Below are positions 17,248-58,402 of a stretch of 62,483 nucleotides of DNA, one piece after another. Origin of the DNA: an uncultured Bacteroidales bacterium (GTDB lineage: Bacteria; Bacteroidota; Bacteroidia; Bacteroidales; FEN-979); contig CAIJYT010000149.1 in NCBI GenBank assembly GCA_903824935.1, positions 1 to 62,483 of the forward strand. Reading direction: 5' to 3'. The notes beneath the pieces were generated by a model. It saw only the letters and a list, made by a program, of their open reading frames with translations. It had not been told where the DNA came from and did no database searches. The stretch's first letter is position 1. Every line of letters begins with the position of its first letter. The position numbers were made by a program, and so were the translations under genes.

Positions 17248-17255
17248 CAAAGATA
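17248..17255 (-). promoter_or_regulatory. -7 promoter element of the nuo operon
   Basis: TATCTTTG (TAnnTTTG) 23 nt upstream of nuoA. Confidence 0.6.
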
Positions 17256-17271
17256 CTGTTTTCTGAAATTA

Positions 17272-17289
17272 TTGTTACAAATTAAACAA
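17272..17289. promoter_or_regulatory. Rex-like 18-bp palindrome at the nuo promoter
   Basis: TTGTTAcaaatTaAACAA resembles the Rex box TTGTGAA-N4-TTCACAA and the site upstream of hdrC. Confidence 0.45.
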
Positions 17290-17395
17290 TTTTCCTCTGA
17301 AGCAAACAGGTAAAAAAATCAATGCTTTAATAAACTGCACAAATACAGGCAAAAAGAATGGTCTGACCTGGTTGGGAAGTCAGGCATGAGGGCTT

Positions 17396-18157: not shown

Positions 18158-18274
18158 AAACTTTTGGTTTTGGTTGATTTGATTTATTAGATGCCTTGAA
18201 ACTTTAATAAGTTACAGCATCAGGTAGTAAATATACAAATTTTATACTTTTACAAATCAAAATCGAACATACTG

Positions 18275-20098: not shown

Positions 20099-20105
20099 GA
20101 TGGAT

Positions 20106-20792: not shown

Positions 20793-20821
20793 CCTTAAAT
20801 TTTTTGCAAATTAATAAATTG

Positions 20822-37186: not shown

Positions 37187-40100
37187 ATGAATTTTAAAAA
37201 TCTTTTCGTTTTCTTGTTTCTTTTATTCTCAGCAACCCTGCCGCTGCATGCACAAAGACAGCCGGTACCGGGTCAGATTCCTTATCCGCCCTTGTATTTT
37301 GATCATCTTGGCCGTGAAAACGGGCTTCCCTCTGAAGTCGTTTTCTGTGCTATACAGGACTTTGAAGGGTATATCTGGGTAGGAACAACCAACGGGCTTG
37401 CAAGGTATGACGGGCATGACATGAAGATTTTCAGGTCAATCCCAGGAGACAGTGCTTCACTTGTCGACAACAGCATTTACGACCTTCACCAGTCAAAAGA
37501 TTCCCTGATCTGGATCGGGACAGGGAACGGGCTGAGCGTATATGATCCGAATACAGGGTTGATTAAAAACTTTCCTTTCGACACAAAAAAACCGGGCGGT
37601 TTTCCGGCAAGGCGTATCTATTCTTTTCATGAGGAGACTGACGGATCGTTATGGGTGGGAGCCGATGACGGGATTGTGGTTGTTTCCGGAAGCGGCAGGA
37701 TGTTCCGTCACATCAGCATCAGTCAATGCCCGGATCCCCTGAAAAGGGAATATAATATGAATATCGTAAGCTGCATAACAGCCTTCCCCGGTGATCAGGG
37801 CAAACTGCTTTTAGGAACTATGGGCGGACTACTTCGTTTTGATAAAAAAACGAATTCGGTCGACAGGGATTTCGGAGGGCCAATCTTACCACGGACTATG
37901 ATACGCGGGATCCTCCCCGATTCAAATATGCAGGTCTGGGTCTTCGGTTGGGGCATGGGGCTGGCTTGCTTCGACCTGAAAAAAGAGAGCTGGAAATCGT
38001 TTTGTCCCGATTCAAAGAAAATCACAATCCTTTCGGTCATACCTAAAAACCGGGATGAATTATGGCTGGGAACCGACGGAATGGGCCTGGCAATATTCAA
38101 TAAGCGAAACTCCTCCTTCTTTTTCTATAAGAATAAGGCGAAAAACCAGGGATCCGTTCTCCCGGATGTGATCCACGGGGGAGCTTATTTCAACAGCAAA
38201 CAGGATTTCTGGATCTGGGGGAATGGAATTGACATCGGGAACAGGGAACTTTTTTCGTTTAAGCAGATCAGGGCCCCTTTCAGGTTCTGGTGGATGAGTT
38301 CGTTTTTCAGGGATGGAAAAAACGATCAGCTGTTTGCCGGGGCATATCGATGCAGTGGGATGCCTGTGTTCGATCTGAAAAAAGAAGTCTGGAAGCTAAT
38401 CGGGACCGATTTCCCCCTGCCGAAGGAAGGACTTTCGGTCAACCAGTTTTTACGTGATTCCCAAAACAGGCTTTGGATCAGCACAAGGAGCGGCCTGGCG
38501 TATTACGACCGGGAGGCTGATCTTCTCAGGCTTTTCAGGACGCCCGAAGGGGAAACCCCGAAATTGAGTGACCCTGTGGTTTACGGACTGTTTGAAGATG
38601 CAGATGGGAATCTCTGGGCGGGAACCCGCTACGACGGGGTCATGCGGATCAGCCGGGACCGTAAAAGAATTGAAAATTTCAGGCACATCCCTGGCAATCC
38701 TCAATCACTCATTGAAGGAACTCATTTTCTTTCTTTCCAGGTTGACACGTTCAAAAGGGTCTGGATGGGCTGCAGGAACGGAGTTAGCATGTATGATCCT
38801 GTAAATAAAAAATTCAGCAACATCCTGATGGATACCCTGCAGAAATACGGAATCAAAAAGAGATGGGTGAACGGGATGGAAAAAGATTCGCTTGGAAGGA
38901 TATGGGTGGCCATCGATGAGGCCGGACTGGTGAGAGCAGAACCCCGGGCCGACGGATCTTTCGGGATAAGGACCTTCCATTCGGGTAACGGAATGAACGA
39001 TCCCGGTACAGGCATGATCGCAAAAGATCCCGATGGAGGGTTCTGGGTGTTGAACAATGGCCTGCTATACGTGAACCCATATATTGAACAGTTCCAGGTT
39101 ATTGATCTGAAAAACGGGCTTCATGAAAATCCCAGCGGATCTTCAAGGGTTTATGTTGATGAAGAAGGAATGATTTACCTCGGGGATTCAATTGGATTCG
39201 AAACAAGGAACATGAAAGACATTCCTTTCAAAGACAAACAGCCTCTCTTCCTTAAGGTCGAATCAGCGGAGATCAACGGCAAGGTAAGCCCTGAACTGCT
39301 TGCCTCCCGGCACTATGCCATCCGGCAACTTAGTGCAGATGAGAATAACCTTACATTTCATTATGCGGCTATCTGTTTTCACAGAAGCGGCCAGGTCCGT
39401 TATAGGTATAAACTCAGCGGGTATGATATGGCATGGATTAATGCCGAAACATCAAAAGAAGCCCGTTATACTAACCTTCCCCCCGGCAGGTATTCGTTTA
39501 TTGTAAGCGTGTCCCAGGGTTCGGGATGGTATGAAGTGAAACAACCTGTTCAATTTATTATTCGTCCGCATATCTGGCAAAGATGGTGGTTCATTCTTAC
39601 CTGCATGACAACACTCATTGCGATAGTAACGATCATCTACCGTTACCGTGTAAACCAGCTTCTGAAAGTTGAACGGCTGAGAACAAGGATCGCTACCGAT
39701 CTGCATGATGACGTTAGTTCCACTTTAAGCAGTATTTCGATCCTCAGCGATATCGTCATACAGCAGACCGAAGACCGGAAATCAGCCGGGATGATAACAG
39801 AAATCGGGAGCAGTGCGAAGGAGATGCTTGAACGCATCGACGATATCATTTGGGCAGTCAACCCCTCAAACGATACCTTCCAGGACCTAGGACTCAGGAT
39901 CAGGGAATACGCGATCCCCCTGTTTGAGTCGAAGAACATTGCATTTTTAATCGACATGCCCGAAAGGCTCGATGATGTTAAATTGCAGATGGATGTGAGG
40001 AGAAACCTTTACCTGATTGCAAAGGAAGCGGTCAACAACCTGGTTAAATATTCGGCATGCAGCAATGCATGTATCATTTTCACTGAAGCATCATCCCAGC

Positions 40101-40270
40101 TGGTACTGGAAGTAAAGGATGACGGAATCGGGTTTGACCAACTGAAAAAAATCAACCGCAACGGTTTGAAAAATATGAAAAAAAGGGCTGAACAGATAAA
40201 GGGTTCCCTGGAGGTGAATTCACAACCCGGAACCGGAACCCATATTTTGCTGAAAGTAAGAACCATATGA
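37187..40270 (+). CDS. Sensor histidine kinase with periplasmic beta-propeller and Y_Y_Y domain (HisKA_3)
   Basis: Repeated QD..G.IWVGT..GL propeller motifs, YRYKLSG..YTNLPPGRYSF, TM helix, RIATDLHDD, EAVNNLVKY, DDGIGFD, GLKNM. Confidence 0.92.
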   Translation: MNFKNLFVFLFLLFSATLPLHAQRQPVPGQIPYPPLYFDHLGRENGLPSEVVFCAIQDFEGYIWVGTTNGLARYDGHDMKIFRSIPGDSASLVDNSIYDLHQSKDSLIWIGTGNGLSVYDPNTGLIKNFPFDTKKPGGFPARRIYSFHEETDGSLWVGADDGIVVVSGSGRMFRHISISQCPDPLKREYNMNIVSCITAFPGDQGKLLLGTMGGLLRFDKKTNSVDRDFGGPILPRTMIRGILPDSNMQVWVFGWGMGLACFDLKKESWKSFCPDSKKITILSVIPKNRDELWLGTDGMGLAIFNKRNSSFFFYKNKAKNQGSVLPDVIHGGAYFNSKQDFWIWGNGIDIGNRELFSFKQIRAPFRFWWMSSFFRDGKNDQLFAGAYRCSGMPVFDLKKEVWKLIGTDFPLPKEGLSVNQFLRDSQNRLWISTRSGLAYYDREADLLRLFRTPEGETPKLSDPVVYGLFEDADGNLWAGTRYDGVMRISRDRKRIENFRHIPGNPQSLIEGTHFLSFQVDTFKRVWMGCRNGVSMYDPVNKKFSNILMDTLQKYGIKKRWVNGMEKDSLGRIWVAIDEAGLVRAEPRADGSFGIRTFHSGNGMNDPGTGMIAKDPDGGFWVLNNGLLYVNPYIEQFQVIDLKNGLHENPSGSSRVYVDEEGMIYLGDSIGFETRNMKDIPFKDKQPLFLKVESAEINGKVSPELLASRHYAIRQLSADENNLTFHYAAICFHRSGQVRYRYKLSGYDMAWINAETSKEARYTNLPPGRYSFIVSVSQGSGWYEVKQPVQFIIRPHIWQRWWFILTCMTTLIAIVTIIYRYRVNQLLKVERLRTRIATDLHDDVSSTLSSISILSDIVIQQTEDRKSAGMITEIGSSAKEMLERIDDIIWAVNPSNDTFQDLGLRIREYAIPLFESKNIAFLIDMPERLDDVKLQMDVRRNLYLIAKEAVNNLVKYSACSNACIIFTEASSQLVLEVKDDGIGFDQLKKINRNGLKNMKKRAEQIKGSLEVNSQPGTGTHILLKVRTI

Positions 40271-40328: not shown

Positions 40329-40964
40329 TTGGCTGTAAAAGTTTCCATCTACGAAGACAATGATTCTCTGCGGAAAACACTTTCCCACCTGATCCAGGGA
40401 ACTTCATCCCTGGAACTGACAGGCAGCTGGCCCGACTGTTCCACGGTGATTGAAAACTGCAGGGAAAACACCCCCGATGTAATCCTCATGGATATTGATA
40501 TGCCAGGGATCTCGGGGATACAGGCGACAGCAATGGTAAAACAGAATTTCTCCAATATAAACATTCTTATTTTTACAGTGTTTGAAGACCGGGAGAAAGT
40601 CTTCGAAGCGCTCTGCGCAGGGGCGACCGGATACCTGCTCAAGAGATCCGGTGCAGTACAGATCATCGAATCGATTCTGGAACTTCACGATGGTGGATCG
40701 CCGATGACCGGCGAGATCGCAAGGATGGTTCTGAAGTTCTTTTCAAAAGCCCCGATTAAAAACGAAAACGACTATGCAATCTCGGCCCGCGAAATGGATA
40801 TCCTCAAATGCATTGTCAAAGGCGACAGCTATAAGATGATTGCTACTTCCTGCTTCATATCCATAGGAACTGTACGCACCCATATCAACAACATCTATAA
40901 AAAGCTTCACGTGAATTCCAAGTCCGAAGCTGTGATCAAGGCCATAAACGAACGCCTGATCTGA
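40329..40964 (+). CDS. NarL/FixJ family response regulator (REC + LuxR HTH)
   Basis: IYEDN, LMDIDMP, GYLLK; SAREMDIL...TVRTHINNIYKKLHV; TTG start. Confidence 0.93.
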   Translation: MAVKVSIYEDNDSLRKTLSHLIQGTSSLELTGSWPDCSTVIENCRENTPDVILMDIDMPGISGIQATAMVKQNFSNINILIFTVFEDREKVFEALCAGATGYLLKRSGAVQIIESILELHDGGSPMTGEIARMVLKFFSKAPIKNENDYAISAREMDILKCIVKGDSYKMIATSCFISIGTVRTHINNIYKKLHVNSKSEAVIKAINERLI

Positions 40965-42667: not shown

Positions 42668-44374
42668 ATGAACAATACCCTCCGAATGAAACAAGCTGCT
42701 GATAAGATCTGCATTATGCTTGGTTTCATGATGATCGTATTGTTCCCTGGTAAAATGGCGGGACAGGACATCCAGAACTTGAAAAACAAGAAACCGGTTA
42801 CGTTTCACGGCTCGATCGCAAATACCTTCCTGTTCCTGAACTCAGGGAAACCGGGCGAAAATCCCCAGCTGATATGGGCGGTGAGTGCGAACGCAACCCT
42901 TTCGGTTTACGGGATCGATCTTCCTTTTTCCTTCACTTTTTCTGATAAAAAAGCCAATTATTCCCAGCCTTTCAACCAGTTCGGCCTAAGCCCGAGGTAC
43001 AAATGGATCACTGTTCACCTCGGGTACAGGAATGTGAACTTTTCTAATTTCGTGATGGCGGGCTATACGTTCCTGGGCGCAGGTGTCGAACTGAATCCCG
43101 GAATTTTTCGTTTTGGCTTTATCTGGGGCCGGTTCGTGAAGTCATCCACATCCAATACCGACCAGAGCCTGTTCGCCCTGCCTGAGCTTTCCAGAAAAGG
43201 TTTTGCAGTTAAAATCGGACTGGGCAACCAGAAAAATTTCGTCGACCTGGTGTTTTTGAAAGCCAAAGACGACAGCAGCTCCCTGAAAAAAACAACAAAT
43301 GATTCCCTGGTCACCCCTGCCGCTAACATCTCGCTTGGCACTAAAATGCATTTTACGATTATCAAACCCCTGATCCTTGATGTTGAAGGGGCAGTGAGTT
43401 TATACACGAACGATATACGTTCCCCGGGTTTTGCCGATTCAAACAGCAGCGCCTGGGTAAAACGGCTTAACAACATCATCCCCATCAACCTTTCAACAGA
43501 ATACTACACCGCTTTCAAAGCCTCCCTGGTTTTCACTAAACCCTCCTATTCCCTTGGCCTGGTCTATACCCGCATCGATCCCTCGTACCGCACCATGGGA
43601 ATATATTACATCAACAACGATCTTGAAAATATTTCATTCAATCCCTCTTTTTACCTGTTCAAAAGGAAGTTCAGATTCTCAGGCAGTGCCGGTTACCAGC
43701 ACGACAATCTCCGCCACACCAAGAGAGCGACATCGGTCAGGACGATCTGGAACCTGAATATCGCCTACGATCCTGTTCAATGGTTCGGGATCGATGCATC
43801 CTACGCTAATTTCAGCACAAACCAGAAACCAGGGAACATCCCCCTGGTTGATTCTCTGAAAACCTATAATGTGAACCGAAACCTTAGCATCAATCCCCGC
43901 CTGCTTTTTGTCAACCCAAAGCTTATCCACTCTGTGATCCTGAGCTTCAACCAGAGCGACTATATCGACCGCAATTCATATACTGATGCTGCAACCACCA
44001 GGGCCACGACCATTTTCCTGAATTACAGCGTAACCTTTATCAATTCCCAGCTGGGACTGAACGCAGGGCTCAGCTATATCAACTGTGTGAATTCCTATGC
44101 CGAAACCAGAATGACAGGAGGATCGGTTGGCGTGAGCAAGCCGTTCTTTAAAAACAAGCTGTTCTGCAGCCTGGGTGAATCGGTGCAGAATTCGTATATC
44201 GCTTCCCAGTCAGGATGGGTGTTCAATACCAATGCCTCGGTAAGGTATCGTCCTCATCCCAAGCATTCGCTTGTTCTGCAGATATACCTGGTAAACAATA
44301 CCATTTCTGACCAAACCGCCGCAAACGTTTTTAACCAATCAAAAGGAGACCTGAGTTATGTATTTACATTCTGA
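42668..44374 (+). CDS. Putative outer-membrane beta-barrel protein
   Basis: Signal peptide, many amphipathic beta-strands, C-terminal aromatic beta-signal GDLSYVFTF; true start may be a few codons downstream. Confidence 0.7.
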   Translation: MNNTLRMKQAADKICIMLGFMMIVLFPGKMAGQDIQNLKNKKPVTFHGSIANTFLFLNSGKPGENPQLIWAVSANATLSVYGIDLPFSFTFSDKKANYSQPFNQFGLSPRYKWITVHLGYRNVNFSNFVMAGYTFLGAGVELNPGIFRFGFIWGRFVKSSTSNTDQSLFALPELSRKGFAVKIGLGNQKNFVDLVFLKAKDDSSSLKKTTNDSLVTPAANISLGTKMHFTIIKPLILDVEGAVSLYTNDIRSPGFADSNSSAWVKRLNNIIPINLSTEYYTAFKASLVFTKPSYSLGLVYTRIDPSYRTMGIYYINNDLENISFNPSFYLFKRKFRFSGSAGYQHDNLRHTKRATSVRTIWNLNIAYDPVQWFGIDASYANFSTNQKPGNIPLVDSLKTYNVNRNLSINPRLLFVNPKLIHSVILSFNQSDYIDRNSYTDAATTRATTIFLNYSVTFINSQLGLNAGLSYINCVNSYAETRMTGGSVGVSKPFFKNKLFCSLGESVQNSYIASQSGWVFNTNASVRYRPHPKHSLVLQIYLVNNTISDQTAANVFNQSKGDLSYVFTF

Positions 44375-47300
44375 AACCTTTCAGCTGATCAGGAAGACAT
44401 CCGTCATCCTGGCTTTTATCTTGATCATTCTTTCGATTTCAGGATCAGGGATTGCGCAGCCCAGGCCTTTGAAAGTGAATGTTGTGGTGATCCCGCCGTA
44501 TTCAACCCGGATATCTGATTATATCAACACTCCGAATAAAATCATCGTCACCATTACGAATACCTCTGCCGGGCCGGCCGGCAAAGCCTATAACTTCTAT
44601 CTCCTGGGTTCGATGAGCTGCGACGCAGGTATGTCGATCGCCACTGACCCGAATTATCTTCCCACCCGGTCAATATCGATCCAGCCCGGACAGGTATACA
44701 AACTAACCCAATCAGACGTTCAGGAGATGTATGACGCGAACCATCTTATTTATAACGGGATCAGCCAGCAGCAGATCCTTCAGGACGGAGGATTTCCGGA
44801 GGGGTATTATACGATCTGTGTTTCGGCTTATGATTACCAGACCAGGCTTAAGCTTTCTGATGACGCTCCTTCGGGATGTAAAAGCTTCCCCGTCACAAAC
44901 CTTGAAACACCCATCATCCAGAAGCCGATATGCGGAGATACTGTTTGGGATCCCCAGCAGCTTGTTAATTTTACCTGGAGTCCATGCGCCGGTGCCCCCC
45001 CAACAACCATGTACAGGCTCAGGATTGTAGAACTTCTGTCGGGGAACCAGGTTCCCCCTGATGCCTTCAAAACAACACCCCCTAATCCGTTTTTCGAGGC
45101 AACAACCCAGGCACCGGTGTTTTTGTACACCAGCGCCTTCCCCCCCATGACCGAGAACCGTACCTATGCATTCGCCATCCAGGCTTTCGATACGAAAGGA
45201 CAGGCTGCATTTAAAAACGGAGGATGGAGCGAGATCTGCTATTTCGTTTATAAAAAAACCAAAAAGCAGATCGGTGGAGGTTTAACCATTGTCAAAAAGC
45301 CCCCCCCAAAACCCAAACTTTTCAATGTCGCAACACTCTCGGGACATATTGATTATAAATTCCCGGTTTCAGGCGAGCAGCATCCGATGAAAAACATTAA
45401 TCTTTCACTGCATGTGGTGTATGTGATCAAAAATGCTACAGCTGTCTCAGGAAGCGGACAAACAACCCAGGGAGGCGAAATAGTCTTCGACCCGGTTTCC
45501 CAGGGATTTTCGAACCAGAAAACAATAGCGCATGATAATATGCAGTTAAGGGCAACCGCGACTACCGATAATTCGGGGAATTTTAACTTCAGCACAACCA
45601 TTGACCCTGAAGAGCAATTCGGGCTCATCCAGGAGGGATTTGCAGCTTCCATGAGCATAACGTACCCGCCGACTCCTGTTGAGATCGGCCCGGTAATCGG
45701 AGGGATAGACCCCAGGGTGATCCCGGGCTGGGATGGACTTATAGACAATATCCTGCTTGAAAATAACGGGTTCAAATATGAGAATTTAATTGGAAATTCG
45801 GGAGGCTATGGCTATTCTAACTTTGAGTTGGGCTCAATGACCTGGAGCGGCTTCAACCTGGCCGGTACATTCGCAGGTAAGGAATTCGTCAATATTGTAA
45901 AAGATGAAATCGGGTTGAAATTCAATAATCAGGGCTATAATAATGCGGGAGGACAAATCGGACAGGGAGGACAAACACAGGTGATGTCACTGAGCGGTCA
46001 TAACCAGAATCTTGGTTCGGTAAAAGGCGACCTATATAAATATCTAAGGGTGGTCGTAGATAATGATTATTACAACAGTCCGGATGACGACTTTTTACTT
46101 CAGTCCGGCACCGACCTGATCGCACCCACGACTCTGATCGGACTGGTAAACACCTATAACCTCACAGTTGAAGTCAGATCGGGAGATACTCACGACCAGG
46201 CGGCTGGAACAAACTCGGCCATGGCGAATGTAAAAGTGGAGGTGGGACGCATTGCCCCTATACCCGAAGATGTTCCCTTTGAAGAAGGACAGAACCTCAA
46301 GCGCAAAGACTTCATGCAGATTGCTCCTTCCTGTCCGCTTATTTCAACAGATTTTACAGGGGCAAGCCCCAAAGGGGTGGTGAAGTTTATGGATCTGGTC
46401 AGTAACAAAGGTCCGATCGACATGTATGAGCTGACAACAAATACAGGTAAAAAGGAAGGGGTTTATAACTACCTGCCCGATTACCAGACGTTCACAAGGG
46501 GTATCAAGCCCTCTTTCAACTCCCAGTTTACCCCGGATGAATTTTCCATAAAGGTTGAGTTGGATCCCGATTATCCAAGGATTGCCGGGAGGGTTATGTA
46601 TAAAAATTATGCAGTTCAGGGAGCAAGTTGTTCGACCAACATCTCAAACCAGGAGGTATATACTGATAAGGACGGGTATTTTGAAATTACCGGGCTTGAC
46701 GTGATCAGCACCGATGCAAATCTGCTTATCAAAAAATACGGTTACGAAGACAAGCTGATCACGGGGATAGGAAAGCTCCAGACCGGCGGACAATACTATA
46801 ATCCAGGAATTGAGCTTATCCCCTGGGGTTATATTACCGGGAGCATTGAAGACAAGGAGGGGAACCCGATCGAGGCGGAAGTTCAGATCGACTCTTTGCC
46901 ATTTCATCAGACATCCGCAGGAAATTCAATAATCGTACCGGCCAGCCAGAAATTCAAATTCAGGGCGCCCTCGGGCAGCAGAACACTTCATATAGTCCCG
47001 GTATCACCTGCTTATATGGATGGAAAATTCGTTGTAACCGTAAATAAAACTCCCGATGACCAGCCGCCCCAGGACCTGGGAACGTTCAAGATGACAAAGA
47101 ATATGCACAGGATAAGGATCTTCGCATACCATGAAGAATTTTCAGGCGTTCAAACCCTTCCAAAAAAAGTGGGGGTGGGGGATTGCTGGATTGACCTCGA
47201 AGGTTTCAAGAAGAAAACCGGAAATACAGGTTATGCTGAATTTGAAGTATCCTCACCCGCCACTGAATTCCACGTAAAAGTGACCCCCCCCGATGCAGAT

Positions 47301-50177
47301 CCCTATTATGTATGGGTGGAAGGGACCGTCACGAACACTCCCTCAAAAATGTTCAAAGATTATAGTTTCGCACTGAAAACAGGGAAGACTATAACAGGGA
47401 TTGTAAAATCCAGTCCCGGCCTTGAAGGGGTTATTGGCGCAAGGGTGTTCGTTGAAGAATCCAATTCCAATCCTTACCTGAGCACCAAAACCTTAAGTAA
47501 CGGCTTCTACAGTCTTCACGGAATACCTGAATACCTCACGAAAGTCACCATAAGCGCTGTTAAGAGCGATTCCATGATCTCTTATGTGGGGGAATCAAAA
47601 GAAGCCGATATCAGCGGGCCAAATCCGAGCGTCAACCTTACCTTAAAGATCATAAATGACGTGGATCTTTCGCGGATATTGGGCTTCCCGCTTGAAGCCA
47701 CCGATTACCAGAAACAACCTGATGGGACAGCTCTGCTGAGCGGGCATATCCAGCCTCTGAACAATACTCACTTTATTCTTTTGAACTACGGGACCAGGCT
47801 TGACTTTTTTAAGGTTAAAATCAAAAAGTCGGCCCAGCTTAATGCAAAAGGAATTCCGTATGCCGAGCCTTCCGAAGGATTTCTGAAGACCGATAACAGT
47901 CTTCTTGAACTACGCTATCACAGTGCCTTCAGGATAAACCAGCTTCCCTCAGGTTCAGGGCCCATTAAAAAAGGGGAAAAGTTAAGTATAACAAAGGGCT
48001 CCGATGGGAACGGGATCATTAAAGGACGTGCACATCTCCTTAAGAATTCCTTCCAGTTCCCGTCAGCACTCATAGATTATGATGAGTCTCAGGCATTCTA
48101 CCTGTATGATGGCGCATCGGGGAGTCAGAATATCATCACCATGGCCGGACAGGGTTCGGGCATCCCTGTGTCGAGGTTTGGTTTAAGCAGCTTCACAGGG
48201 AATGATATGCCAGTGAAATTCTCCGGATTTACTTCAACCGCAAGATCTTCGGGCTCTTACCTGAAAAACGACAGCCTTGTCCTTGATCTGAACGTTAAGG
48301 CCACCCTCAAGGGAAGCATACAAACTATTATGGATGTTGGTAAAGTGCGGATGTCCGCTTCGTTTATTAATCCGGTTGAAGTGAATCAACCCCTTGACAT
48401 CAGCCTGGGTGAGAAATGGAAAATCCACATTGATAAACTGACCTGGAACAGCTCCCAAAACGGGTTCAGTGGGAAGAATCCTTCCCTGATAACAGGATTC
48501 GCAACTATTCCGGTGAAGAATTTTAAACTTAAACCCGAAGATCTCATACTTGAAGGTTTCACAATCACCAACCTTAAGATCGGCAACGCCTCTCCTATTG
48601 ACATCAGTAATGAAGCAGAATGCCTCTTCTATTTCGATCCGGTCGCAGGCGAAGCTGGCAAGCCGCATTATGTGATCAAGATCATCGGGCAGGATGCGAA
48701 AAAGACCATAGCGACACTGAGCGGGCTACCAGGGACTCAGCCATCCGCGAAGCTTGATATTGGTTCTATACAGGTGCTCGACAATGACGAACAGCTGTAT
48801 GCAGGACTCGAGAATTCAGGCGAACTCCTGTTTTACGATGTCTTTCACCTTAAAGTCAACCAGATCACGGGCCGGCAGAATTCGTTCACGCTTACCGGGA
48901 TTTACAACCTTAACCTGCCCAGGATACCGAATTACAGCAGAGCCAGCCTGAACTTTTTCAGGGATAAAACTTCCCGGGTTGCCATGAACATGGATCCGCT
49001 GCCGCTTGAATTTTCAGGTCCTGCGGATGTCAGGTTCGAAGCAAACCAGGTTAAATTTGCTGATACACTTTTCCCGGGGAATTTTCAGTGCAAGGGTAAA
49101 CTTACATTCACCGACCAGGGGATAACAAAAACCCTGGATGCTATGCTTGTACGTGAAACCAGTCAGGGATATGTGAAGATCTTCCCCGACAACCAGTCGT
49201 TCGTCCTGGGTTCAGGAGGTTCAAATGCCGTGCGCATGACCGGGCTGAACGGCCAGATGCCGGCAAACAAAGCCGACTGGGATTTCTTCTGGTTCCAGGG
49301 AAAGCTTGCCAATGCCAAAAATGCAACCCAGCCAGGGCAGACCAACAAGTTCTTTGTCAAAGGGTCAATCACTTCAGAGGGAAATTCGATTTCGGCTGAG
49401 AACCTGAGCACTCCACTAGGAGATGTTAAACTGACCTATGATTTTAAGAATAACATCCTTCATGGGTCCCTGGTGATGAAAGACTATTCCCTTTGCGGAT
49501 TTGCGGCAAACGGTGCGGCCGACATTGAATTCGGCTCGAATGGCTGGTATCTCGCAGGTTCGGTGAAGATCTTTGTTGATCCTTTGATCATTCAGACGAT
49601 TTCTGCCGGACTGATCTTCGGGAGTATCAGTCCAGTTCCTCAAAGTGCGAAGAACACGGTGCTGATGAATGCCAAAAACAAGGAATGGCCCGATTCCCTT
49701 GATTCCCATCTGAAAGGATTTTTCTTCACAGGGTATAAAAGCCTGTTCCCACCTGTTTCTGTTGCTGCAGGATTCAGCCTGGGAGGATACTTTGTTGGCT
49801 ATAAAGTTTCGGCAGAGGCAGGAGTTGACGCCCGTTTCTGGATGAATTTTCTACCCAACTCATACGAAATGGGATTCGGTGTGATGATGCTGGGAAATGC
49901 TTCTGTGTACCTCGGACAATACACCGGCGTAATCTGTCCGTACATCAGCGGAGGCACAACGATCGGGTTCGGGATCAACAGCGGAACATACAACTTTTCA
50001 ACGAAGAAGTTCAAAGTCCATGGACAGGGTTTTGTTGGAATGTCGCTGGATGCGGGGATCTGTTTTGGTCCATTTTGTAACGGATGTCTTTCAACTTCAC
50101 TGAGCAAGACCCTGAATTGTGATGTATGGATTGAAAACCAGCCGACTTCCGTTGACTTTTCAATCGACCTGAAATAA
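44358..50177 (+). CDS. Giant exported protein: TANFOR-like N-terminal domain, FN3/Ig, carboxypeptidase-regulatory-like repeats, beta-rich C-terminus
   Basis: Signal peptide; VNVVVIPPYSTRISDY...GFPEGYYTICV..YD; FN3-like NFTWSP..YRLRIVE..YAFAIQA; TDKDGYFEI / ITGIV..GARV repeats; no T9SS CTD. Confidence 0.7.
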   Translation: MYLHSETFQLIRKTSVILAFILIILSISGSGIAQPRPLKVNVVVIPPYSTRISDYINTPNKIIVTITNTSAGPAGKAYNFYLLGSMSCDAGMSIATDPNYLPTRSISIQPGQVYKLTQSDVQEMYDANHLIYNGISQQQILQDGGFPEGYYTICVSAYDYQTRLKLSDDAPSGCKSFPVTNLETPIIQKPICGDTVWDPQQLVNFTWSPCAGAPPTTMYRLRIVELLSGNQVPPDAFKTTPPNPFFEATTQAPVFLYTSAFPPMTENRTYAFAIQAFDTKGQAAFKNGGWSEICYFVYKKTKKQIGGGLTIVKKPPPKPKLFNVATLSGHIDYKFPVSGEQHPMKNINLSLHVVYVIKNATAVSGSGQTTQGGEIVFDPVSQGFSNQKTIAHDNMQLRATATTDNSGNFNFSTTIDPEEQFGLIQEGFAASMSITYPPTPVEIGPVIGGIDPRVIPGWDGLIDNILLENNGFKYENLIGNSGGYGYSNFELGSMTWSGFNLAGTFAGKEFVNIVKDEIGLKFNNQGYNNAGGQIGQGGQTQVMSLSGHNQNLGSVKGDLYKYLRVVVDNDYYNSPDDDFLLQSGTDLIAPTTLIGLVNTYNLTVEVRSGDTHDQAAGTNSAMANVKVEVGRIAPIPEDVPFEEGQNLKRKDFMQIAPSCPLISTDFTGASPKGVVKFMDLVSNKGPIDMYELTTNTGKKEGVYNYLPDYQTFTRGIKPSFNSQFTPDEFSIKVELDPDYPRIAGRVMYKNYAVQGASCSTNISNQEVYTDKDGYFEITGLDVISTDANLLIKKYGYEDKLITGIGKLQTGGQYYNPGIELIPWGYITGSIEDKEGNPIEAEVQIDSLPFHQTSAGNSIIVPASQKFKFRAPSGSRTLHIVPVSPAYMDGKFVVTVNKTPDDQPPQDLGTFKMTKNMHRIRIFAYHEEFSGVQTLPKKVGVGDCWIDLEGFKKKTGNTGYAEFEVSSPATEFHVKVTPPDADPYYVWVEGTVTNTPSKMFKDYSFALKTGKTITGIVKSSPGLEGVIGARVFVEESNSNPYLSTKTLSNGFYSLHGIPEYLTKVTISAVKSDSMISYVGESKEADISGPNPSVNLTLKIINDVDLSRILGFPLEATDYQKQPDGTALLSGHIQPLNNTHFILLNYGTRLDFFKVKIKKSAQLNAKGIPYAEPSEGFLKTDNSLLELRYHSAFRINQLPSGSGPIKKGEKLSITKGSDGNGIIKGRAHLLKNSFQFPSALIDYDESQAFYLYDGASGSQNIITMAGQGSGIPVSRFGLSSFTGNDMPVKFSGFTSTARSSGSYLKNDSLVLDLNVKATLKGSIQTIMDVGKVRMSASFINPVEVNQPLDISLGEKWKIHIDKLTWNSSQNGFSGKNPSLITGFATIPVKNFKLKPEDLILEGFTITNLKIGNASPIDISNEAECLFYFDPVAGEAGKPHYVIKIIGQDAKKTIATLSGLPGTQPSAKLDIGSIQVLDNDEQLYAGLENSGELLFYDVFHLKVNQITGRQNSFTLTGIYNLNLPRIPNYSRASLNFFRDKTSRVAMNMDPLPLEFSGPADVRFEANQVKFADTLFPGNFQCKGKLTFTDQGITKTLDAMLVRETSQGYVKIFPDNQSFVLGSGGSNAVRMTGLNGQMPANKADWDFFWFQGKLANAKNATQPGQTNKFFVKGSITSEGNSISAENLSTPLGDVKLTYDFKNNILHGSLVMKDYSLCGFAANGAADIEFGSNGWYLAGSVKIFVDPLIIQTISAGLIFGSISPVPQSAKNTVLMNAKNKEWPDSLDSHLKGFFFTGYKSLFPPVSVAAGFSLGGYFVGYKVSAEAGVDARFWMNFLPNSYEMGFGVMMLGNASVYLGQYTGVICPYISGGTTIGFGINSGTYNFSTKKFKVHGQGFVGMSLDAGICFGPFCNGCLSTSLSKTLNCDVWIENQPTSVDFSIDLK

Positions 50178-50200
50178 ATAAAATCAAAGGAGAAGAAATC

Positions 50201-52165
50201 ATGAAAAAGATATTTCCTGTTCTGTTTTCAGCCCTGCTGATCCAGGTTTTTACAACTGTTAATGCCCAATACCCGGCAGCATTAAGTGCACCAAAGGGAG
50301 TTTTCGTTCTGTTCGATTCGGCCTGGCATAAAAATTCAGTGATTGAAATCAGCCGCAGTGACAATTCCGGCAGCTTTAAAGATCTTGCCAAAATCACGGT
50401 TCCTGTCGTCGAATCCGAATTTAAAAAAGGAATAAAGACTGCTGAAAAGGATTTTACCGCTTTGCCCGAAGCGGATGAGAAATCGGTTTCGGCCTGGTGG
50501 ATGGGGCTTAATGCCAGTCAGGCCATGCCTGTCTTTATGATGAATCCTGCAGGCCTCATTGCTGCAGGGATCGCATTCTATGATAAAACAGCTGTGACAG
50601 GAATTACCAGCAGTTACCGCATCAGGATCACCGGACCCGATGGATCTACGGTAATGCAAAAATTCACAGGGAATACCTTACTCCCGGCAAGGGAATCACT
50701 GCCGGTCCCGCACTTTGTCAAGGCTGTTGAAGACGAAAGGATTATCCGTGTTTGCTGGGGCTATGTTCCAAAGAAAATGCCTGCATTTGTCAAAGTATAC
50801 CGGCTCATGGAGGGTGAAAAAGACTACGGGGAAATGAAGTTCAGCGGGGGATTCAATGTTAAGGGCGACAGTGTTTACATCACTCACAGTGACACCATGG
50901 TTAAAGCTATGTCGGCGTACAAATACGTTATCCGCGCTTTCGACTGGCTGGGCAATGCCTTTCCGGTTTCAGATACCGCAATCGCCCGTGCTTACTCGGT
51001 TTACTCGGCACCGGTCATCCGCATGTTCTATACAAAAGCAATACCCGAAAAACATGCCATCAGGCTTTCATGGCCGCAACCCGAAGGACAGAGCCTCAGG
51101 GGAATTTTGCTGTTCCGTTCGGCCAGTATTGACGGCAGTTATATACATCTGGCCACCCTGCCGGCAACCGACACTTCATATACCGATATTGTGCCCATGG
51201 CCAATGAGAATTACTGGTATTTTGCTGTTGTCGCAAACCGCTTCGGATACGGGATGCCAAGCACAAGGGTGTTCGACCTTGTAAGCACTTCTACCATTCC
51301 TTTACAGCCATCTGCTCCCAAAATTTCGGCTGCGAAAAAAGGGGCCGCAATCAGCTGGTCAGGCAAAGGCGAATTTATCAAAGGATATTATGTTTACAGG
51401 GGAGAAGGGTACCGGGGGCAGTTAAAACAGCTGAGTGATATCGTCAAACCTTCTCCAAGTCCGTTTTACCTCGATTCTACGGCGTTGCCCGGATCAGCTT
51501 ACCGCTATGCCGTTGCCGCCCTGGGCGAGGGAAACGGTATCAGTAAGTTTTCCGATTCAGTATCCGTTATGATCCCTGCAAATGGGCATATAACAGTACC
51601 TTTCAACCTGAGTTACCGTATCGACGGTTCAGTAATTATGCTTTTCTGGGAGAATCTTCTCATCGATGACGGAATGGTCAGGGGATATTTGGTATATCGC
51701 AAAGCCGGCGGGAAGACTGACTTCAGCAGGCTAACCCAGTCTGCCTTGTCATCACTGACGAATTCATTTATAGATTCAACAGTCATGGGAGGTCAAACAG
51801 TTGAGTACTCCGTCGCATCGGTCGATCCAAAGGGCATTGAGAGCCAGAGTAGCATCTCCATTGTAATTGAGATGCCTGAACTTGCAAGGATACAGGTGGG
51901 AAACCTTTCACTGATTAACGATGGGGGCAACGTCATTGTGAAATGGTCTGAAATAAGCGACCCCGCCTTAATCTCATTCAAAGTCTTCAGGTTTACCGAA
52001 ACAAGCGAACCCGTTCTGATAGGGACAGCGAAACCCGGAGAAAATTACATCACCGACCGCTCACCGGCGAGAGGCAATGTTCTGAATAACTATTTTGTAA
52101 AAGCAGTTTACGGTGAAGGTATGGAGACCGAACCTGCAGAAATACCGGCAATTAGGGTTCCCTAG
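50201..52165 (+). CDS. Exported fibronectin type III repeat protein
   Basis: Signal peptide; ~6 repeats of L.W...GY.VYR...Y.D...Y.Y.V.A; no T9SS CTD. Confidence 0.8.
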   Translation: MKKIFPVLFSALLIQVFTTVNAQYPAALSAPKGVFVLFDSAWHKNSVIEISRSDNSGSFKDLAKITVPVVESEFKKGIKTAEKDFTALPEADEKSVSAWWMGLNASQAMPVFMMNPAGLIAAGIAFYDKTAVTGITSSYRIRITGPDGSTVMQKFTGNTLLPARESLPVPHFVKAVEDERIIRVCWGYVPKKMPAFVKVYRLMEGEKDYGEMKFSGGFNVKGDSVYITHSDTMVKAMSAYKYVIRAFDWLGNAFPVSDTAIARAYSVYSAPVIRMFYTKAIPEKHAIRLSWPQPEGQSLRGILLFRSASIDGSYIHLATLPATDTSYTDIVPMANENYWYFAVVANRFGYGMPSTRVFDLVSTSTIPLQPSAPKISAAKKGAAISWSGKGEFIKGYYVYRGEGYRGQLKQLSDIVKPSPSPFYLDSTALPGSAYRYAVAALGEGNGISKFSDSVSVMIPANGHITVPFNLSYRIDGSVIMLFWENLLIDDGMVRGYLVYRKAGGKTDFSRLTQSALSSLTNSFIDSTVMGGQTVEYSVASVDPKGIESQSSISIVIEMPELARIQVGNLSLINDGGNVIVKWSEISDPALISFKVFRFTETSEPVLIGTAKPGENYITDRSPARGNVLNNYFVKAVYGEGMETEPAEIPAIRVP

Positions 52166-52995
52166 AACTCGTCGGGCAAGGCTTTCAGCTGGGCATAAGT
52201 GAATACGGGCCCGTCCTTGCAGATATAAGTACTTCCGATATTGCACCTGCCGCATTTACCCAGTCCGCACTGCATCTTCATTTCAAGAGTAGTGATAACA
52301 TGCTCTGGGGAAAATCCCAGGCGGTCGAGCGACTGCAGTGTGTATTTGATCATGATCGGCGGTCCGCAGGTGATCACCTTGGTGTTGGCGATCTCAGGCT
52401 TCACCACTTCTTCGAGGATCTTGGGAACCACTCCAACATTCTCCTTCCAGTTATCCTCAGCTTTGTCAATGGTCAGAACCACCTTGATGCTGGTGTTTTT
52501 CTTCCATTCTTCTATTTCTTCCTTATAACAAAGGTCTGCGGATGTACGGGCACCATAAAGAATGGTAAAGTCCTTGTAATCGGTACGATGGTCAATACAG
52601 TATTGTATCAATGAACGCAAGGGGGCCAGGCCTATTCCACCACCCACGAACAAAAGATTCCTGCCTTTGATCTCTTCCACTGGAAACCAGTTACCGTAGG
52701 GGCCGCGAATTCCAACCTCATCCCCCTCCTCGATATTCAGGTGAATGTCGGCGGTAACAACACCGGCCTTTTTGATCGAGCAGTCAAAATATCCTTTTCT
52801 CGTGGCAGAAGATGAAATACAGAACGTGCATTCACCGGACCCAAGCAGTGAGAATTCAACGAATTGCCCAGGCTCCCAGGTGAACTTTTCCATCAGGGCT
52901 TCATCCTTGAATTTCAATCTGTAAGTCCTCACGTCAGGCGTTTCCTGTATTATTCTGTCAACTTTTGCCAGGGAGGGAACTAATAATGCTTCCAT
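52162..52995 (-). CDS. flxA: FlxA: FAD/NAD(H)-binding oxidoreductase with 2Fe-2S (PyrK/AsrB-like)
   Basis: GPYGN, VGGGIGLAPLRS, CGPPIM, MQCGLGKCGRC..CKDGPVF; start set at ATG 52995. Confidence 0.85.
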   Translation of the reverse strand: MEALLVPSLAKVDRIIQETPDVRTYRLKFKDEALMEKFTWEPGQFVEFSLLGSGECTFCISSSATRKGYFDCSIKKAGVVTADIHLNIEEGDEVGIRGPYGNWFPVEEIKGRNLLFVGGGIGLAPLRSLIQYCIDHRTDYKDFTILYGARTSADLCYKEEIEEWKKNTSIKVVLTIDKAEDNWKENVGVVPKILEEVVKPEIANTKVITCGPPIMIKYTLQSLDRLGFSPEHVITTLEMKMQCGLGKCGRCNIGSTYICKDGPVFTYAQLKALPDEF

Positions 52996-53011
52996 AATTT
53001 CAAAATTTAAA

Positions 53012-53056
53012 TAGCGAAGTAGCGAGGTAGCGAAATAGCGAAACCACATTTCGCTA
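53012..53056. repeat. Octamer array (TAGCGARR)x4 plus one inverted unit, flxB-flxA spacer
   Basis: tagcgaag tagcgagg tagcgaaa tagcgaaa ... atttcgcta. Confidence 0.8.
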
Positions 53057-53074
53057 CTTATTTTTATACTTTGT

Positions 53075-54133
53075 TTACAATACAACAGGTGTCGATGCAA
53101 CATGGTTAACTACGTCGAAAATACTGATGTTCACGGGGCAGGAAATGGCGCAATGCCCGCAGCCCACGCAGAGATTCACTCCGAAGCGTTCCTTATAAAA
53201 CACGAACTTGTGCATGGACCTCTGCCTCCAGCGTCGGTATTTTGCCGGGCGTGGATTATGGCCCCCTGCTTCAAGTGTAAAGTAAACATTGTTGCAGGAA
53301 TCGTAGCTCTTGTAACGAACACCTGTATCCTTGATCTTCACGTCGGAAATCTTGAAACAATGGCAGGTCGGGCAAATGAATGCGCAGGTGTTGCAGCTTA
53401 CGCAATTGCGTGAAGCTTCTTCAAATGCAGGCGAATTAAAGCGTTTCGACATTTTTTCATTCACGTCCTTGTAATCCATTTTCAGGCGGAACGAAGCAGC
53501 AAATGCCTCATATTGTTTTTTAATATCATCCATTGCCGACTGCTGACTGCCGACTGCCGACTGCTTCTCCAGGTTTTCCTTTAGAAAATTCTCTCCCTTT
53601 TCAGTTCGAGCCTGAATATAAAGCTTACCTCCGATTCCATTGACGAGGGCCACATCCGTAGCATCCAGGTTCTCCACATCATAATCAAGGGAGGTACAGA
53701 AACAATGGGTATCGGCCTTGTCGCAACGGGTTGAGAAGATTACGGTGTTAGCCCTGCGTTTCTGGAAGTCGCTGTCGATGTAATCCCATTTATTCACTGC
53801 TTCCAGAACCTGCAGCCCGCGTGCATCGCAATGCTTCACTCCCAATATGACACGGGGCACAGCCAGGTGGTCATCCTCCGTTTCAGAGACAGAGGTCCCG
53901 GCGCTGTTTGATTCATATTTCATGATCTTGGAGGAACGCGGGAAGAACAGGGGTTTCACGCTCATCGTCATGGCAATGGGTGAGTCCGGGTCGCATTCCT
54001 TCAGCGATGAAACCTTTTTATAATCATACTTCCCGAATTTCTCCACAGGAGCATAGGTCTCGTGCTTGCTGATGATGGCTTCATACAGTTTCTGCAAGCC
54101 AGCTTTATCGGTAACAAAGGTTGAAAAACTCAT
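53075..54133 (-). CDS. flxB: FlxB: 4Fe-4S dicluster protein (AsrA/HydB-like)
   Basis: GVKHCD, CFCTS, CVSCNTCAFICPTCHCF, CVGCGHCAISCP. Confidence 0.8.
   Translation of the reverse strand: MSFSTFVTDKAGLQKLYEAIISKHETYAPVEKFGKYDYKKVSSLKECDPDSPIAMTMSVKPLFFPRSSKIMKYESNSAGTSVSETEDDHLAVPRVILGVKHCDARGLQVLEAVNKWDYIDSDFQKRRANTVIFSTRCDKADTHCFCTSLDYDVENLDATDVALVNGIGGKLYIQARTEKGENFLKENLEKQSAVGSQQSAMDDIKKQYEAFAASFRLKMDYKDVNEKMSKRFNSPAFEEASRNCVSCNTCAFICPTCHCFKISDVKIKDTGVRYKSYDSCNNVYFTLEAGGHNPRPAKYRRWRQRSMHKFVFYKERFGVNLCVGCGHCAISCPVNISIFDVVNHVASTPVVL
53534..53564. repeat. Heptamer array (TGCYGAC)x4 inside flxB
   Basis: tgccgac tgctgac tgccgac tgccgac tgc, read as QSAVGSQQSA. Confidence 0.8.
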
Positions 54134-54148
54134 AATTCTTTCTTCGGA

Positions 54149-55000
54149 TTACATGATAAAATCATCGGGATCCTTGAGGCTGTATTTATAGAAAGCCCCG
54201 CGGTCGCCTTCTTCAACTCCGGCCAGGTGATTCTGGAAATTTTCGTAAATCACCTTCTCGTTCTGTTTATGCAGCAGGTGCAGCGGAAGATGGCTGGGAC
54301 AGGCTTTTTCACAGTTCCGGCAGTCAACGCAGCGGCCTGCCAGGTGCAGCGACCACGTCATCAGGGCATGGAAAGCGCTTGAAGAGGTGTTCGTTCCGTT
54401 GTACAAAGTTGATGTTTCCTGATCAATGCAGCACTTGGCGCAATAACAGAGAGGGCATGAATGTCTGCAGGCGTTACAGCGTATACAGTTTTCGAAGATC
54501 TCTTCGAAATATTCCCTGCGTTCAACCAGGCCTTTGGTGGCAAGCTCGGTAATGTCGGCATTTACAATATAATCCTTCTTCCCCTGTAGCTTTCCGAGCA
54601 TTTCATCATATACAACGGCATCCGGGATGAAACATTCCATGCAGTTTTGCATCTTGTTCCCCTTATCGTCAACCACACCCTCACAGGCGACCCCTATGAT
54701 ATAAAGCTTATCTCGTTTTACCTGGCTTTCGGTTAGCAGGAGGTTAAGGGAACGGCTGTCACAGCCTTTCACAACCAAACCCACCCTCTTGTTCCTGGTA
54801 TGATCGGCTTTGAGGTAATTTGTAAGGTTGAATACGGATTTTTCCGTAAAAACAAGGACCGACGTTTCTTTTGGATCGGTAATCACAACGGGTACCTGGT
54901 TGTCGTCGAAGCCGCTCATCCGGTAACCGACGAACACGTCGATCTTCCCTTCTGCGAAAAGCTTTGCGGCAATGTCCCGGATTTGGTTTGAATAGTCCAT
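54149..55000 (-). CDS. flxC: FlxC: 4Fe-4S dicluster protein
   Basis: KGCDSRS, CIRCNACRHSCPLCYC..C, HLAGRCVDCRNCEKACP. Confidence 0.8.
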   Translation of the reverse strand: MDYSNQIRDIAAKLFAEGKIDVFVGYRMSGFDDNQVPVVITDPKETSVLVFTEKSVFNLTNYLKADHTRNKRVGLVVKGCDSRSLNLLLTESQVKRDKLYIIGVACEGVVDDKGNKMQNCMECFIPDAVVYDEMLGKLQGKKDYIVNADITELATKGLVERREYFEEIFENCIRCNACRHSCPLCYCAKCCIDQETSTLYNGTNTSSSAFHALMTWSLHLAGRCVDCRNCEKACPSHLPLHLLHKQNEKVIYENFQNHLAGVEEGDRGAFYKYSLKDPDDFIM

Positions 55001-55485
55001 TATCGGTTAAAGTTTTCTTTTTTATACAAATGTAGAGGGCCGAGTTTTACAACATCATCGGTCACTTTTTTCACGACCTGGGCGAACTTGGCGCCTTCGG
55101 CAGCGGATACCCAGCTGAACTGTACCCTGTGCCCATGGAATCCCACCATTTTAAGCAGTTCTTTGGTTACCAGGAAACGCCTGCGGGCGTAATAATTCCC
55201 GCTGATGTAATGGCAGTCGCCCGGGTGACAGCCCGAGATCAGCACGCCATCCGCAGTGGTTTGTAAAGCCTTGATGATAAACCAGGGATCGACCCGTGAA
55301 GAACAGGGAACCCTGATGATGCGGATGTTCGGCGGATACTGTGTACGGGATGTACCTGTAAGGTCCGAGCCCGCATAGGAACACCAGTTGCATAGAATAC
55401 CCATAATCACCGGTTTCCAGTCCGGAGGCGCGATGAGCTCGGGTTTCTCAATGCTGACGATTTTGTCTTTTGATTCTGCTTCCAT
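55000..55485 (-). CDS. flxD: FlxD / MvhD-like 2Fe-2S subunit
   Basis: LCNWCSYAG.D, RVPCSSRVDP, GCHPGDCHY, WVSAAEG. Confidence 0.88.
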   Translation of the reverse strand: MEAESKDKIVSIEKPELIAPPDWKPVIMGILCNWCSYAGSDLTGTSRTQYPPNIRIIRVPCSSRVDPWFIIKALQTTADGVLISGCHPGDCHYISGNYYARRRFLVTKELLKMVGFHGHRVQFSWVSAAEGAKFAQVVKKVTDDVVKLGPLHLYKKENFNR

Positions 55486-57458: not shown

Positions 57459-58402
57459 TATTCAACCTCACTTTCTGCCTGAACGGCTTTTTTACCCTTT
57501 ACAGGTTTCTTCGGTTCTTCAATAACTTCTCCAATATGGGCCAGTGCAGAGTCGACTGGAATGATATGTTTGGCGAACATCATCTTTGCCTTCGGGAACC
57601 CGAAGGCAATGGCCATCAACTGGGTCAGATAGAAAACCGGGAGATCATATTTAACATGGTATTTCTTTTCAATATCGTGCTGCCTCATATCAAGGTTCGA
57701 CTGGCAGAGAGGACAGGCCACCACGATTGCATGGGCTCCGCTTTCCTTCGCCATTTCCAGGATCTTGCCGCTCAGCTGAAGCACAATATCCGTATCGGAA
57801 ATTGAAAAAGAAGCGCCGCAGCATTCGGTCTTGAAATCGAAGGGGGTAGCCTTCGCACCCAGGGCTTCCACGATGCGGTCCATCGACATAGGATATTCCG
57901 GTGAATCAAACTGGGTGATTGCTTTAGGGCGGGTAAGCAAACAGCCGTAATAACAGGCCAGCTTCATCCCGCTGATAGGATTGGTCACCTTTGCCTTAAT
58001 GGCTTCAAGGCCCATGTCTTCATAGCAATACTGAAGCATGGATTTTATTGCAACCTTTCCTTCATAATTGCCTTCACCCACCACTGCAGTGTTGATCCTT
58101 GCTGCCAGTTCGGGATTTTCATCCATATGCACCTTGGTTGCCTTCATCCTCTGGTAACAGGAAGCGCAGGGAATAGTCATTGTATCGTTGCTGAGTTTTT
58201 CGGCAAGGACCAGGTTTCGCAGCGGAAGGGCATATGAAAGGCTTTCGCTCAGGGTATGTGCTGAGGTAGCACCACAGCAATTCCAGTCGGGGATCTCTTC
58301 CATTTCGACATCCATGGTCTTCATAACCATTTTTACCGTTTCGTCAAATTCCTCACTGGTGCCGTGGGCCGAACAGCCCGGGAAATAACTTACTTCCTTC
58401 AT
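57458..58402 (-). CDS. hdrB: Heterodisulfide reductase subunit B (CCG domains)
   Basis: YFPGC, WNCCGA, PCASC; YYGC, ECCGA, ACPLCQ.NLD. Confidence 0.93.
   Translation of the reverse strand: MKEVSYFPGCSAHGTSEEFDETVKMVMKTMDVEMEEIPDWNCCGATSAHTLSESLSYALPLRNLVLAEKLSNDTMTIPCASCYQRMKATKVHMDENPELAARINTAVVGEGNYEGKVAIKSMLQYCYEDMGLEAIKAKVTNPISGMKLACYYGCLLTRPKAITQFDSPEYPMSMDRIVEALGAKATPFDFKTECCGASFSISDTDIVLQLSGKILEMAKESGAHAIVVACPLCQSNLDMRQHDIEKKYHVKYDLPVFYLTQLMAIAFGFPKAKMMFAKHIIPVDSALAHIGEVIEEPKKPVKGKKAVQAESEVE

Follow-up and report, generated by a model that had tools for sequence, protein, structure and literature searches.

In this work, a three-gene locus was analysed in a 62,483-nucleotide (nt) stretch of DNA from an uncultured Bacteroidales bacterium (GTDB lineage FEN-979; assembly GCA_903824935.1, contig CAIJYT010000149.1), and this whole stretch is called the window below. 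In order, the genes encode a protein modelled as a wide outer-membrane beta-barrel, a giant protein of 1939 amino acids (aa) with a TANFOR-like N-terminal head, and a secreted FN3-type protein (Table 1). We consider it probable that they form a conserved module in which the barrel holds the TANFOR-like head inside its lumen, anchors the giant and probably exports it. A preliminary description, made from the sequence alone, had reported three co-oriented genes with a 17-nt overlap and a 23-nt gap between the giant and FN3 genes, and both distances are exact in the list of open reading frames (ORFs). It had likewise reported the YVFTF end of the barrel protein, which is present in the translation, and Sec-type signals on all three proteins. 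The latter were read by eye from the translations, where each N-terminus consists of a charged stretch, a hydrophobic stretch and an A/G-Q site. The ratio of nonsynonymous to synonymous substitution rates (dN/dS) against locus L002, a relative about 90% identical in DNA, was 0.076 for the barrel gene, 0.105 for the giant gene and 0.19 for the FN3 gene, and the first 310 codons of the giant had the lowest value in the operon (0.037). Thus, all three are real, functional genes under purifying selection.

Table 1. Positions of the three-gene module, its parts and its upstream neighbours in the window
Feature	Positions	Strand	Remarks
Barrel gene, 568 aa	42668-44374	+	From the ORF list; product ends YVFTF; no periplasmic domain in model; unannotated family
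Giant gene, 1939 aa	44358-50177	+	Signal peptide, TANFOR-like head, beta-sandwich stalk, conserved C-terminal module
FN3 gene, 654 aa	50201-52165	+	Secreted product, about four repeats of FN3 type; third in the conserved module
Overlap of barrel stop region with giant start codon, 17 nt	44358-44374	+	AGGAG 9 nt upstream of ATG
Giant head, residues 34-310	44457-45287	+	TANFOR-like first domain and second domain called fn3 in relatives; predicted lumen part
Giant stalk, residues 311-1124	45288-47729	+	CarbopepD_reg_2 at 742-799, CarboxypepD_reg at 1011-1069; length differs among relatives
Giant C-terminal module, residues 1125-1939	47730-50174	+	All-beta, conserved; last ~270 residues from base 49359; Cys-rich tail
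TapA/TapC-like gene, 535 aa	41041-42648	+	Type IX secretion system C-terminal domain; neighbour, outside the conserved module
Sensor kinase	37187-40270	+	Pfam: Reg_prop, Y_Y_Y, HisKA_3
LuxR-type response regulator	40329-40964	+	Pfam

The linkage of the three genes was computed in related loci. A scan of species genomes gave 539 relatives of the barrel protein; the best 79 loci were fetched, and 78 were counted after the near-identical L002 had been left out. The fetched loci include those of Tannerella forsythia ATCC 43037, Dyadobacter, Pedobacter, Mucilaginibacter, Puia and a Flavobacteriaceae strain. In 76 of the 78 loci, the barrel has beside it a giant whose N-terminal ~300 residues are the same, and the other two loci end 119-134 nt past the barrel gene. 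The giant starts within -100 to +40 nt of the barrel stop in 71 of these 76 loci and exactly at -17 in 34 of the 76 (best match). One seeming exception (L014) also has a head-bearing gene at a -17 overlap, followed by two more in tandem. An FN3-protein homologue lies downstream of 55 of the 61 complete giants, in 48 cases within 70 nt, and for the six giants without it at most 1129 nt of DNA remain after the giant gene. By clustering all ORFs of the 78 loci, only three families were found to be common, namely the barrel (78 loci), the giant (76) and the FN3 protein (59). The next commonest upstream were a TPR-HisKA kinase (17), a LytTR regulator (15) and a LuxR regulator (6). The dedicated module proposed in the preliminary description, for which it had suggested a neighbourhood survey of barrel homologues, is therefore borne out by these counts, with the partners present in most loci, and by the 62 of 65 barrel-bearing genomes that also carry the head in the sample described next. 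In L014 itself (9920-21179), a single barrel is followed by head-bearing proteins of 931, 573 and 550 aa, none with a Pfam domain, as though several cargoes were arrayed behind one barrel.

The genome sample comprised 401 evenly drawn Bacteroidota genomes. The barrel profile found 84 places in 65 genomes at its cut-off of E <= 1e-18, and a second profile, derived from 70 barrel-linked heads, gave matches in 75 genomes, of which 65 (98 places) passed its cut-off of E <= 1e-10; both cut-offs were set after the lists had been seen. Rows with weaker scores, for the most part incomplete matches in frames of 800-920 aa, were left out, and so were the second pieces of split matches. Barrel and head occur together in 62 genomes, the barrel only in 3 and the head only in 3, and the window genome has one of each. 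A head follows within 2.5 kilobases (kb) downstream on the same strand for 55 of the 84 barrels and at 5.4-5.6 kb for two more. For 17 others it lies 3.4-17.5 kb upstream on the same strand, the order being giant, FN3 and barrel in the one case inspected. Heads outnumber barrels in several genomes, e.g., G117 with one barrel and three heads, and G049 with three barrels and five heads. The curated TANFOR model TIGR02542 matched in 9 of the 401 genomes, never above its cut-off, so that it recovers only a small part of the head family in this sample (9 versus 75 genomes).

No Pfam or NCBIfam family matched the barrel protein, and this includes PorP/SprF, Omp85, POTRA, plug or TonB-type and transporter families. 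Its relatives of about 560 aa number at least 1180 (90% clusters); few of them bear a source name, always 'hypothetical', and none has a Pfam domain. Among 50% representatives, the family extends to 3055 clusters at E <= 0.001 and 2370 at E <= 1e-10. The AlphaFold2 model of the protein has a predicted local distance difference test score (pLDDT) of 81.5 and a predicted template modelling score (pTM) of 0.67, with 25 long strands and one short strand. The first strand begins at residue 44, about 10 residues past the predicted signal peptide, and therefore there is no room for a periplasmic domain. When strands are counted back from the C-terminus, taken as facing the periplasm, 26 strands by our reading put the long connections outside and the short ones inside. 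The best fold match was MtrB (6r2q_B), a 26-strand barrel that encloses a partner protein, both by Foldseek (E 2.2e-9; template modelling score for the query, TMq, 0.50) and by VIA (Z 19.2, root-mean-square deviation (rmsd) 5.8, 441 residues aligned). Ushers and LptD come next in the Foldseek list, and Occ-type porins, a chitoporin and a SusC-type transporter in the VIA list. The modelled fold of the 568-aa protein, a very wide outer-membrane barrel with about 26 strands, is in keeping with the barrel expected in the preliminary description.

Two variants of this protein were observed. One genome family, represented by G051 (L082, 8047-10494, minus strand), has a barrel ORF of about 815-836 aa, in which roughly 250 extra residues after the barrel match no Pfam or NCBIfam family. 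At that locus follow a giant with a weak TNT match and then two small ORFs in place of the FN3 gene. Genome G100 encodes a 911-aa protein (L081, 693-3428) with an aromatic tail of the outer-membrane-protein type and no Pfam match, which aligns with the barrel family only over profile columns 275-364 (E about 1e-10). Frames of 800-920 aa like it recur in many of the sampled genomes. NCBIfam assigned no family to the long barrel variant, to this weak relative or to the two small downstream ORFs.

The TANFOR model matches residues 40-167 of the giant (E 2.9e-16, 59.7 bits; 65.5 bits in the whole-genome search). Since both scores lie under the curated cut-off of 67 bits, 'TANFOR-like', already used in the preliminary description, is the right wording for the head, although it stands where TANFOR does, at the N-terminal end of a large protein of Bacteroidota and behind a Sec signal. 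The head is conserved in 70 of 70 aligned giants. In the stalk, CarboxypepD_reg at 1011-1069 scored over its cut-off and CarbopepD_reg_2 at 742-799 just under. These two and TANFOR were the only Pfam and NCBIfam families matched by the giant at E <= 0.1, with no two-partner secretion (TPS) domain. The carboxypeptidase-regulatory-like domains described earlier are thus present as two families, whereas the fn3 domains described with them were not matched by Pfam in the giant itself; the second half of the head is called fn3 in relatives. CarboxypepD_reg-type domains are common in Bacteroidota surface proteins and transporters. Giants range from 1827 to 3126 aa among relatives, and the C-terminal module keeps a fixed distance from the end, so the variable part is the stalk.

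The C-terminal part of the giant was found to be conserved. Iterated hidden Markov models (HMMs) from the last 800 residues of the window giant recovered the same segments at a fixed C-terminal offset in 44-59 loci, and Pfam found no domain in the last 400 aa of any of the 62 barrel-linked giants, that of the window included. The 'variable C-terminal cargo' of the preliminary description finds no support in either result for this lineage; the ~800 aa of beta-rich sequence with a Cys-containing tail, which it also described, are there, with an all-beta model of the last 815 residues (mean pLDDT 85.9) and the tail in the translation. Foldseek returned no global match for this module (template modelling score, TM, about 0.1), with LptD (TM about 0.11) and Rhs shells listed first; a trans-envelope beta-groove, another earlier idea, gains no specific support from an LptD listing at that level only. 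The last ~270 residues resemble the wall of a transmembrane beta-barrel. By VIA, the closest chain was CymA (4d5b_A; Z 13.5, rmsd 6.7, 213 aligned, model 562-815), FhaC, BamA and autotransporter beta-domains scored Z 9-12, and 82 chains reached Z >= 8. The beta-domains of BrkA and Hbp matched this part at Z 9.1-9.3, with no Pfam match. A terminal aromatic residue occurs in only 5 of 42 family members, and the tail is Cys-rich. In the most divergent giants, this module is shared over its first half only (98% probability by hhalign, E 2.2e-13), and its HMMs matched none of six toxin-type relatives, nor one distant barrel-linked giant. By our reading, the window giant, which has no recognisable toxin, is a structural, contact-making form. 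For its last 300 aa, DUF6603 appeared as a weak Atlas lead only (score 0.86) and was not used.

A complex of barrel residues 33-568 with giant residues 34-310 was then predicted. The barrel-head pair scored 0.84 (0.84, 0.80 and 0.88 in separate runs), as against 0.00 for the best of three controls. Among solved complexes, 58 of 80 came up to the score mark applied, and among mismatched pairs 2 of 110 did; these counts hold here only roughly because our own alignments were used in the complex prediction. Contacts agree between the runs to at least 86%, and the pLDDT of the partner is at least 78. A sequence search of solved structures found no relative of the barrel, the head or the C-terminal module; with no solved relative of either chain, the score is not the recall of a known complex. 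On the barrel side, the predicted interface consists of alternate residues on many strands (e.g., 397, 399, 401, 403, 405 and 505, 507, 509, 511), which by our reading would fit side chains facing the lumen, and it includes several loops read as extracellular. On the giant side, 51 of 70 interface residues fall in 181-300, and the interface is mostly 181-293 plus 137-149. The lowest-error pairs join giant residues 287-293 and 184-186 to barrel loop 313-316, and by our strand-parity reading, in which this loop is extracellular, the exit of the chain would lie outside. A direct contact between barrel and giant through the N-terminal region, for which the preliminary description had named complex prediction as a check, is thus supported by a controlled prediction.

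The third protein (654 aa) has no Pfam match of its own, and NCBIfam gave only weak CbhB and PelI matches at E <= 0.1. Among 50 homologues, 27 have a Pfam fn3 match, and fn3 is also present in the nearest Atlas clusters; for a distant FN3-type protein, the NCBIfam matches were weak and below cut-off.

The head links the module to a published toxin class. TANFOR was called uncharacterised in the preliminary description, which is outdated: according to the text of Jana, Salomon and Bosis (2020; PMC7073777), it is the N-terminal marker of a class of polymorphic toxins with 339 proteins. These proteins have Sec signals, and Fn3, SprB and T9SS-tail domains (T9SS, type IX secretion system) are enriched nearby (PMC7073777). 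The T9SS was found in over 95% of TANFOR genomes and export by it was speculated, the export route being otherwise left open (PMC7073777). In the text of that article the word 'barrel' does not occur and no outer-membrane partner is named, its supplementary tables of adjacent genes lying outside this statement. Our literature search on Bacteroidetes toxins and barrels returned no title or abstract on this module among the best-ranked matches. Same-head proteins with toxin tips were also found here, with an XOO_2897-type deaminase in a 1057-aa protein and a colicin/pyocin DNase (E 3.9e-41) in a 1726-aa protein, and other same-head relatives have weak TNT and chitinase-type matches; such relatives fit the published TANFOR toxin class. 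They are mostly shorter and often unlinked to a barrel. The window giant resembles TANFOR toxins in its homologous N-terminal head, its Sec signal, its size and phylum, and the Fn3 gene nearby. It differs from them in scoring below the curated cut-off, in lacking the variable C-terminal toxin and the immunity gene of that class, and in ending with the conserved ~800-aa module. The gene after it is the FN3 gene, followed by a convergent operon, with no immunity-like gene. A 3078-aa TANFOR protein of T. forsythia stands in a table of proteins of extracellular vesicles and outer-membrane vesicles (PMC10682907), and the barrel-linked giant of T. forsythia ATCC 43037 is also 3078 aa long, a likeness drawn by length alone.

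We hypothesize that the three genes encode a conserved head-in-barrel module, which we consider more probable than any of the alternatives weighed below. The first ~300 residues of the giant would dock in the barrel lumen, and a head so docked would anchor the giant at the outer membrane by way of the barrel, which would probably also export it. The stalk and the C-terminal beta module would leave the barrel on the extracellular side, and the FN3 protein would be a fixed accessory. Computation shows the linkage of the genes, the barrel fold and the conservation of the head and the C-terminal module; the contact in the lumen is predicted, and this topology, the export and any part in cell contact or antagonism are inferred. 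Compared with the interpretation in the preliminary description, the fixed module, the barrel fold and the contact of barrel and giant are kept, while the variable C-terminal cargo and the uncharacterised status of TANFOR are given up. The barrel family is likely the missing outer-membrane partner of the whole TANFOR class, including the shorter toxin-tipped relatives. A barrel co-inherited with the TANFOR-like head throughout the phylum, and predicted to hold it, is a concrete candidate for the TANFOR export question. More tentatively, and with somewhat less than even confidence, we suggest that barrel, head and FN3 protein may constitute an undescribed export and display pathway of Bacteroidota, two-partner-like but made of unrelated parts and independent of the T9SS, which could be the exit route of TANFOR toxins, with one barrel for several cargoes. 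If the barrel does export its cargo, a new route of secretion across the outer membrane would exist in a phylum with gut, oral and environmental members.

Several points weigh against the head-in-barrel module. The evidence for it is computational throughout, and the extracellular exit of the chain rests on our strand-parity reading of the contact list rather than on coordinates. Conservation at the predicted interface does not exceed that of the rest of either protein (permutation p 0.28 and 0.34). A head that fills the lumen leaves the crossing of some 1600 further residues unexplained. In the genome sample, 10 of 84 barrels have no head nearby and 24 of 98 heads are unlinked. Finally, SprA is present in every module-bearing genome, and a gene for a T9SS cargo lies directly upstream of the barrel in the window.

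The last two points keep alive a rival explanation, in which the giant is exported by the T9SS through an unrecognised signal and the barrel is only a post-secretion anchor of the head, as PorP/SprF-type barrels are for SprB-type cargo. Export of TANFOR proteins by the T9SS has already been proposed in the article text, with T9SS substrates enriched near TANFOR genes (PMC7073777). Moreover, both ends of the lumen domain touch loop 313-316, and such contacts would suit docking from outside. However, no T9SS C-terminal domain was matched in the giant or the 654-aa protein by Pfam or NCBIfam at E <= 0.1. The contrast drawn in the preliminary description thus holds, since Por_Secre_tail (E 3e-10) was found only in the 535-aa upstream protein, which also resembles TapA/TapC (NF050177, E 8.8e-65, under cut-off). 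This upstream gene is not conserved with the module, its full-length homologue being found only in L002. SprA occurs in 312 of the 314 sampled genomes outside one family, which itself also lacks the module, so its co-occurrence is nearly universal and uninformative on the T9SS independence proposed in the preliminary description. PorP/SprF-type barrels offer a parallel, being barrels of Bacteroidota whose genes lie next to that of the giant surface protein to be held; the barrel described here matches no PorP/SprF model, though, and it would contact its partner through an N-terminal head instead of a C-terminal domain. On balance, we regard T9SS export with the barrel as anchor as unlikely, with perhaps a minor share of the probability.

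A second rival explanation places the giant below the membrane. The pair would be a gated channel or envelope complex in which the head plugs the barrel from the periplasm, as in LptE/LptD and MtrA/MtrB, and the rest of the giant stays periplasmic or is re-inserted through its barrel-like C-terminus. In the simplest biogenesis, a Sec-exported head would indeed enter the barrel from the periplasm soon after the barrel has folded; MtrB, the best fold match, works in this way, and the resemblance of the giant's last ~270 residues to transmembrane barrels reaches the Z of 13.5 given above. In MtrAB of Shewanella (6r2q) and in LptD/LptE, too, a very large barrel holds a partner protein inside, and a partner in the lumen of a ~26-strand barrel, as in such plug-and-barrel systems, is found here by prediction. 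On the other hand, they have no sequence relationship with the module, and where they have a cytochrome or lipoprotein as partner, the module has the head of a 1939-aa protein. The lowest-error contacts lie, by the parity reading, at extracellular strand ends and loops. Same-head relatives carry nucleases and deaminases at their ends, and these must get out of the cell; the rarity of a terminal aromatic residue and the Cys-rich end speak against re-insertion. A periplasmic plug is thus improbable, and more so than T9SS export. A role in nutrient capture or as a surface coat, with the barrel as a solute channel, the giant and FN3 protein as surface binding or coat proteins, and no part in antagonism or secretion, is very improbable, because the CarboxypepD_reg-type domains, the porins and SusC-type transporter among the fold matches and the sensor-regulator pairs recurring upstream are outweighed by the lack of any matched plug, TonB-type domain or transporter family, by the conservation of the three genes only, with no glycan-degrading or binding genes, and by a head common to toxin-tipped proteins.

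The head-in-barrel module can also be compared with two-partner secretion (type Vb; TpsB/TpsA, CdiB/CdiA), in which a barrel gene likewise precedes the gene of a giant whose N-terminal recognition region is conserved, and variable toxin tips occur in some members. In contrast to it, the module has no Omp85/POTRA or TPS match, about 26 strands instead of 16, and a fixed third gene, and its head is predicted to stay folded in the lumen.

The sensor kinase and the LuxR-type response regulator upstream of the TapA/TapC-like gene possibly regulate the operon; strong matches to the kinase lie upstream only in the closest relatives, with weaker ones in five more loci. Promoter and terminator scans stayed at chance level (22 versus 20.9 and 24 versus 18.2, respectively), the scan being ill-suited to Bacteroidota promoters, and an Rfam scan of the window matched no RNA family. 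The window DNA was found in freshwater and lake metagenome runs, with no RNA run among the runs listed. The convergent operon downstream (52162-58402, minus strand) is of the heterodisulfide-reductase/hydrogenase type and encodes FlpD, two CCG domains, several 4Fe-4S proteins and an FAD/NAD-binding protein, which suggests an anaerobic lifestyle.

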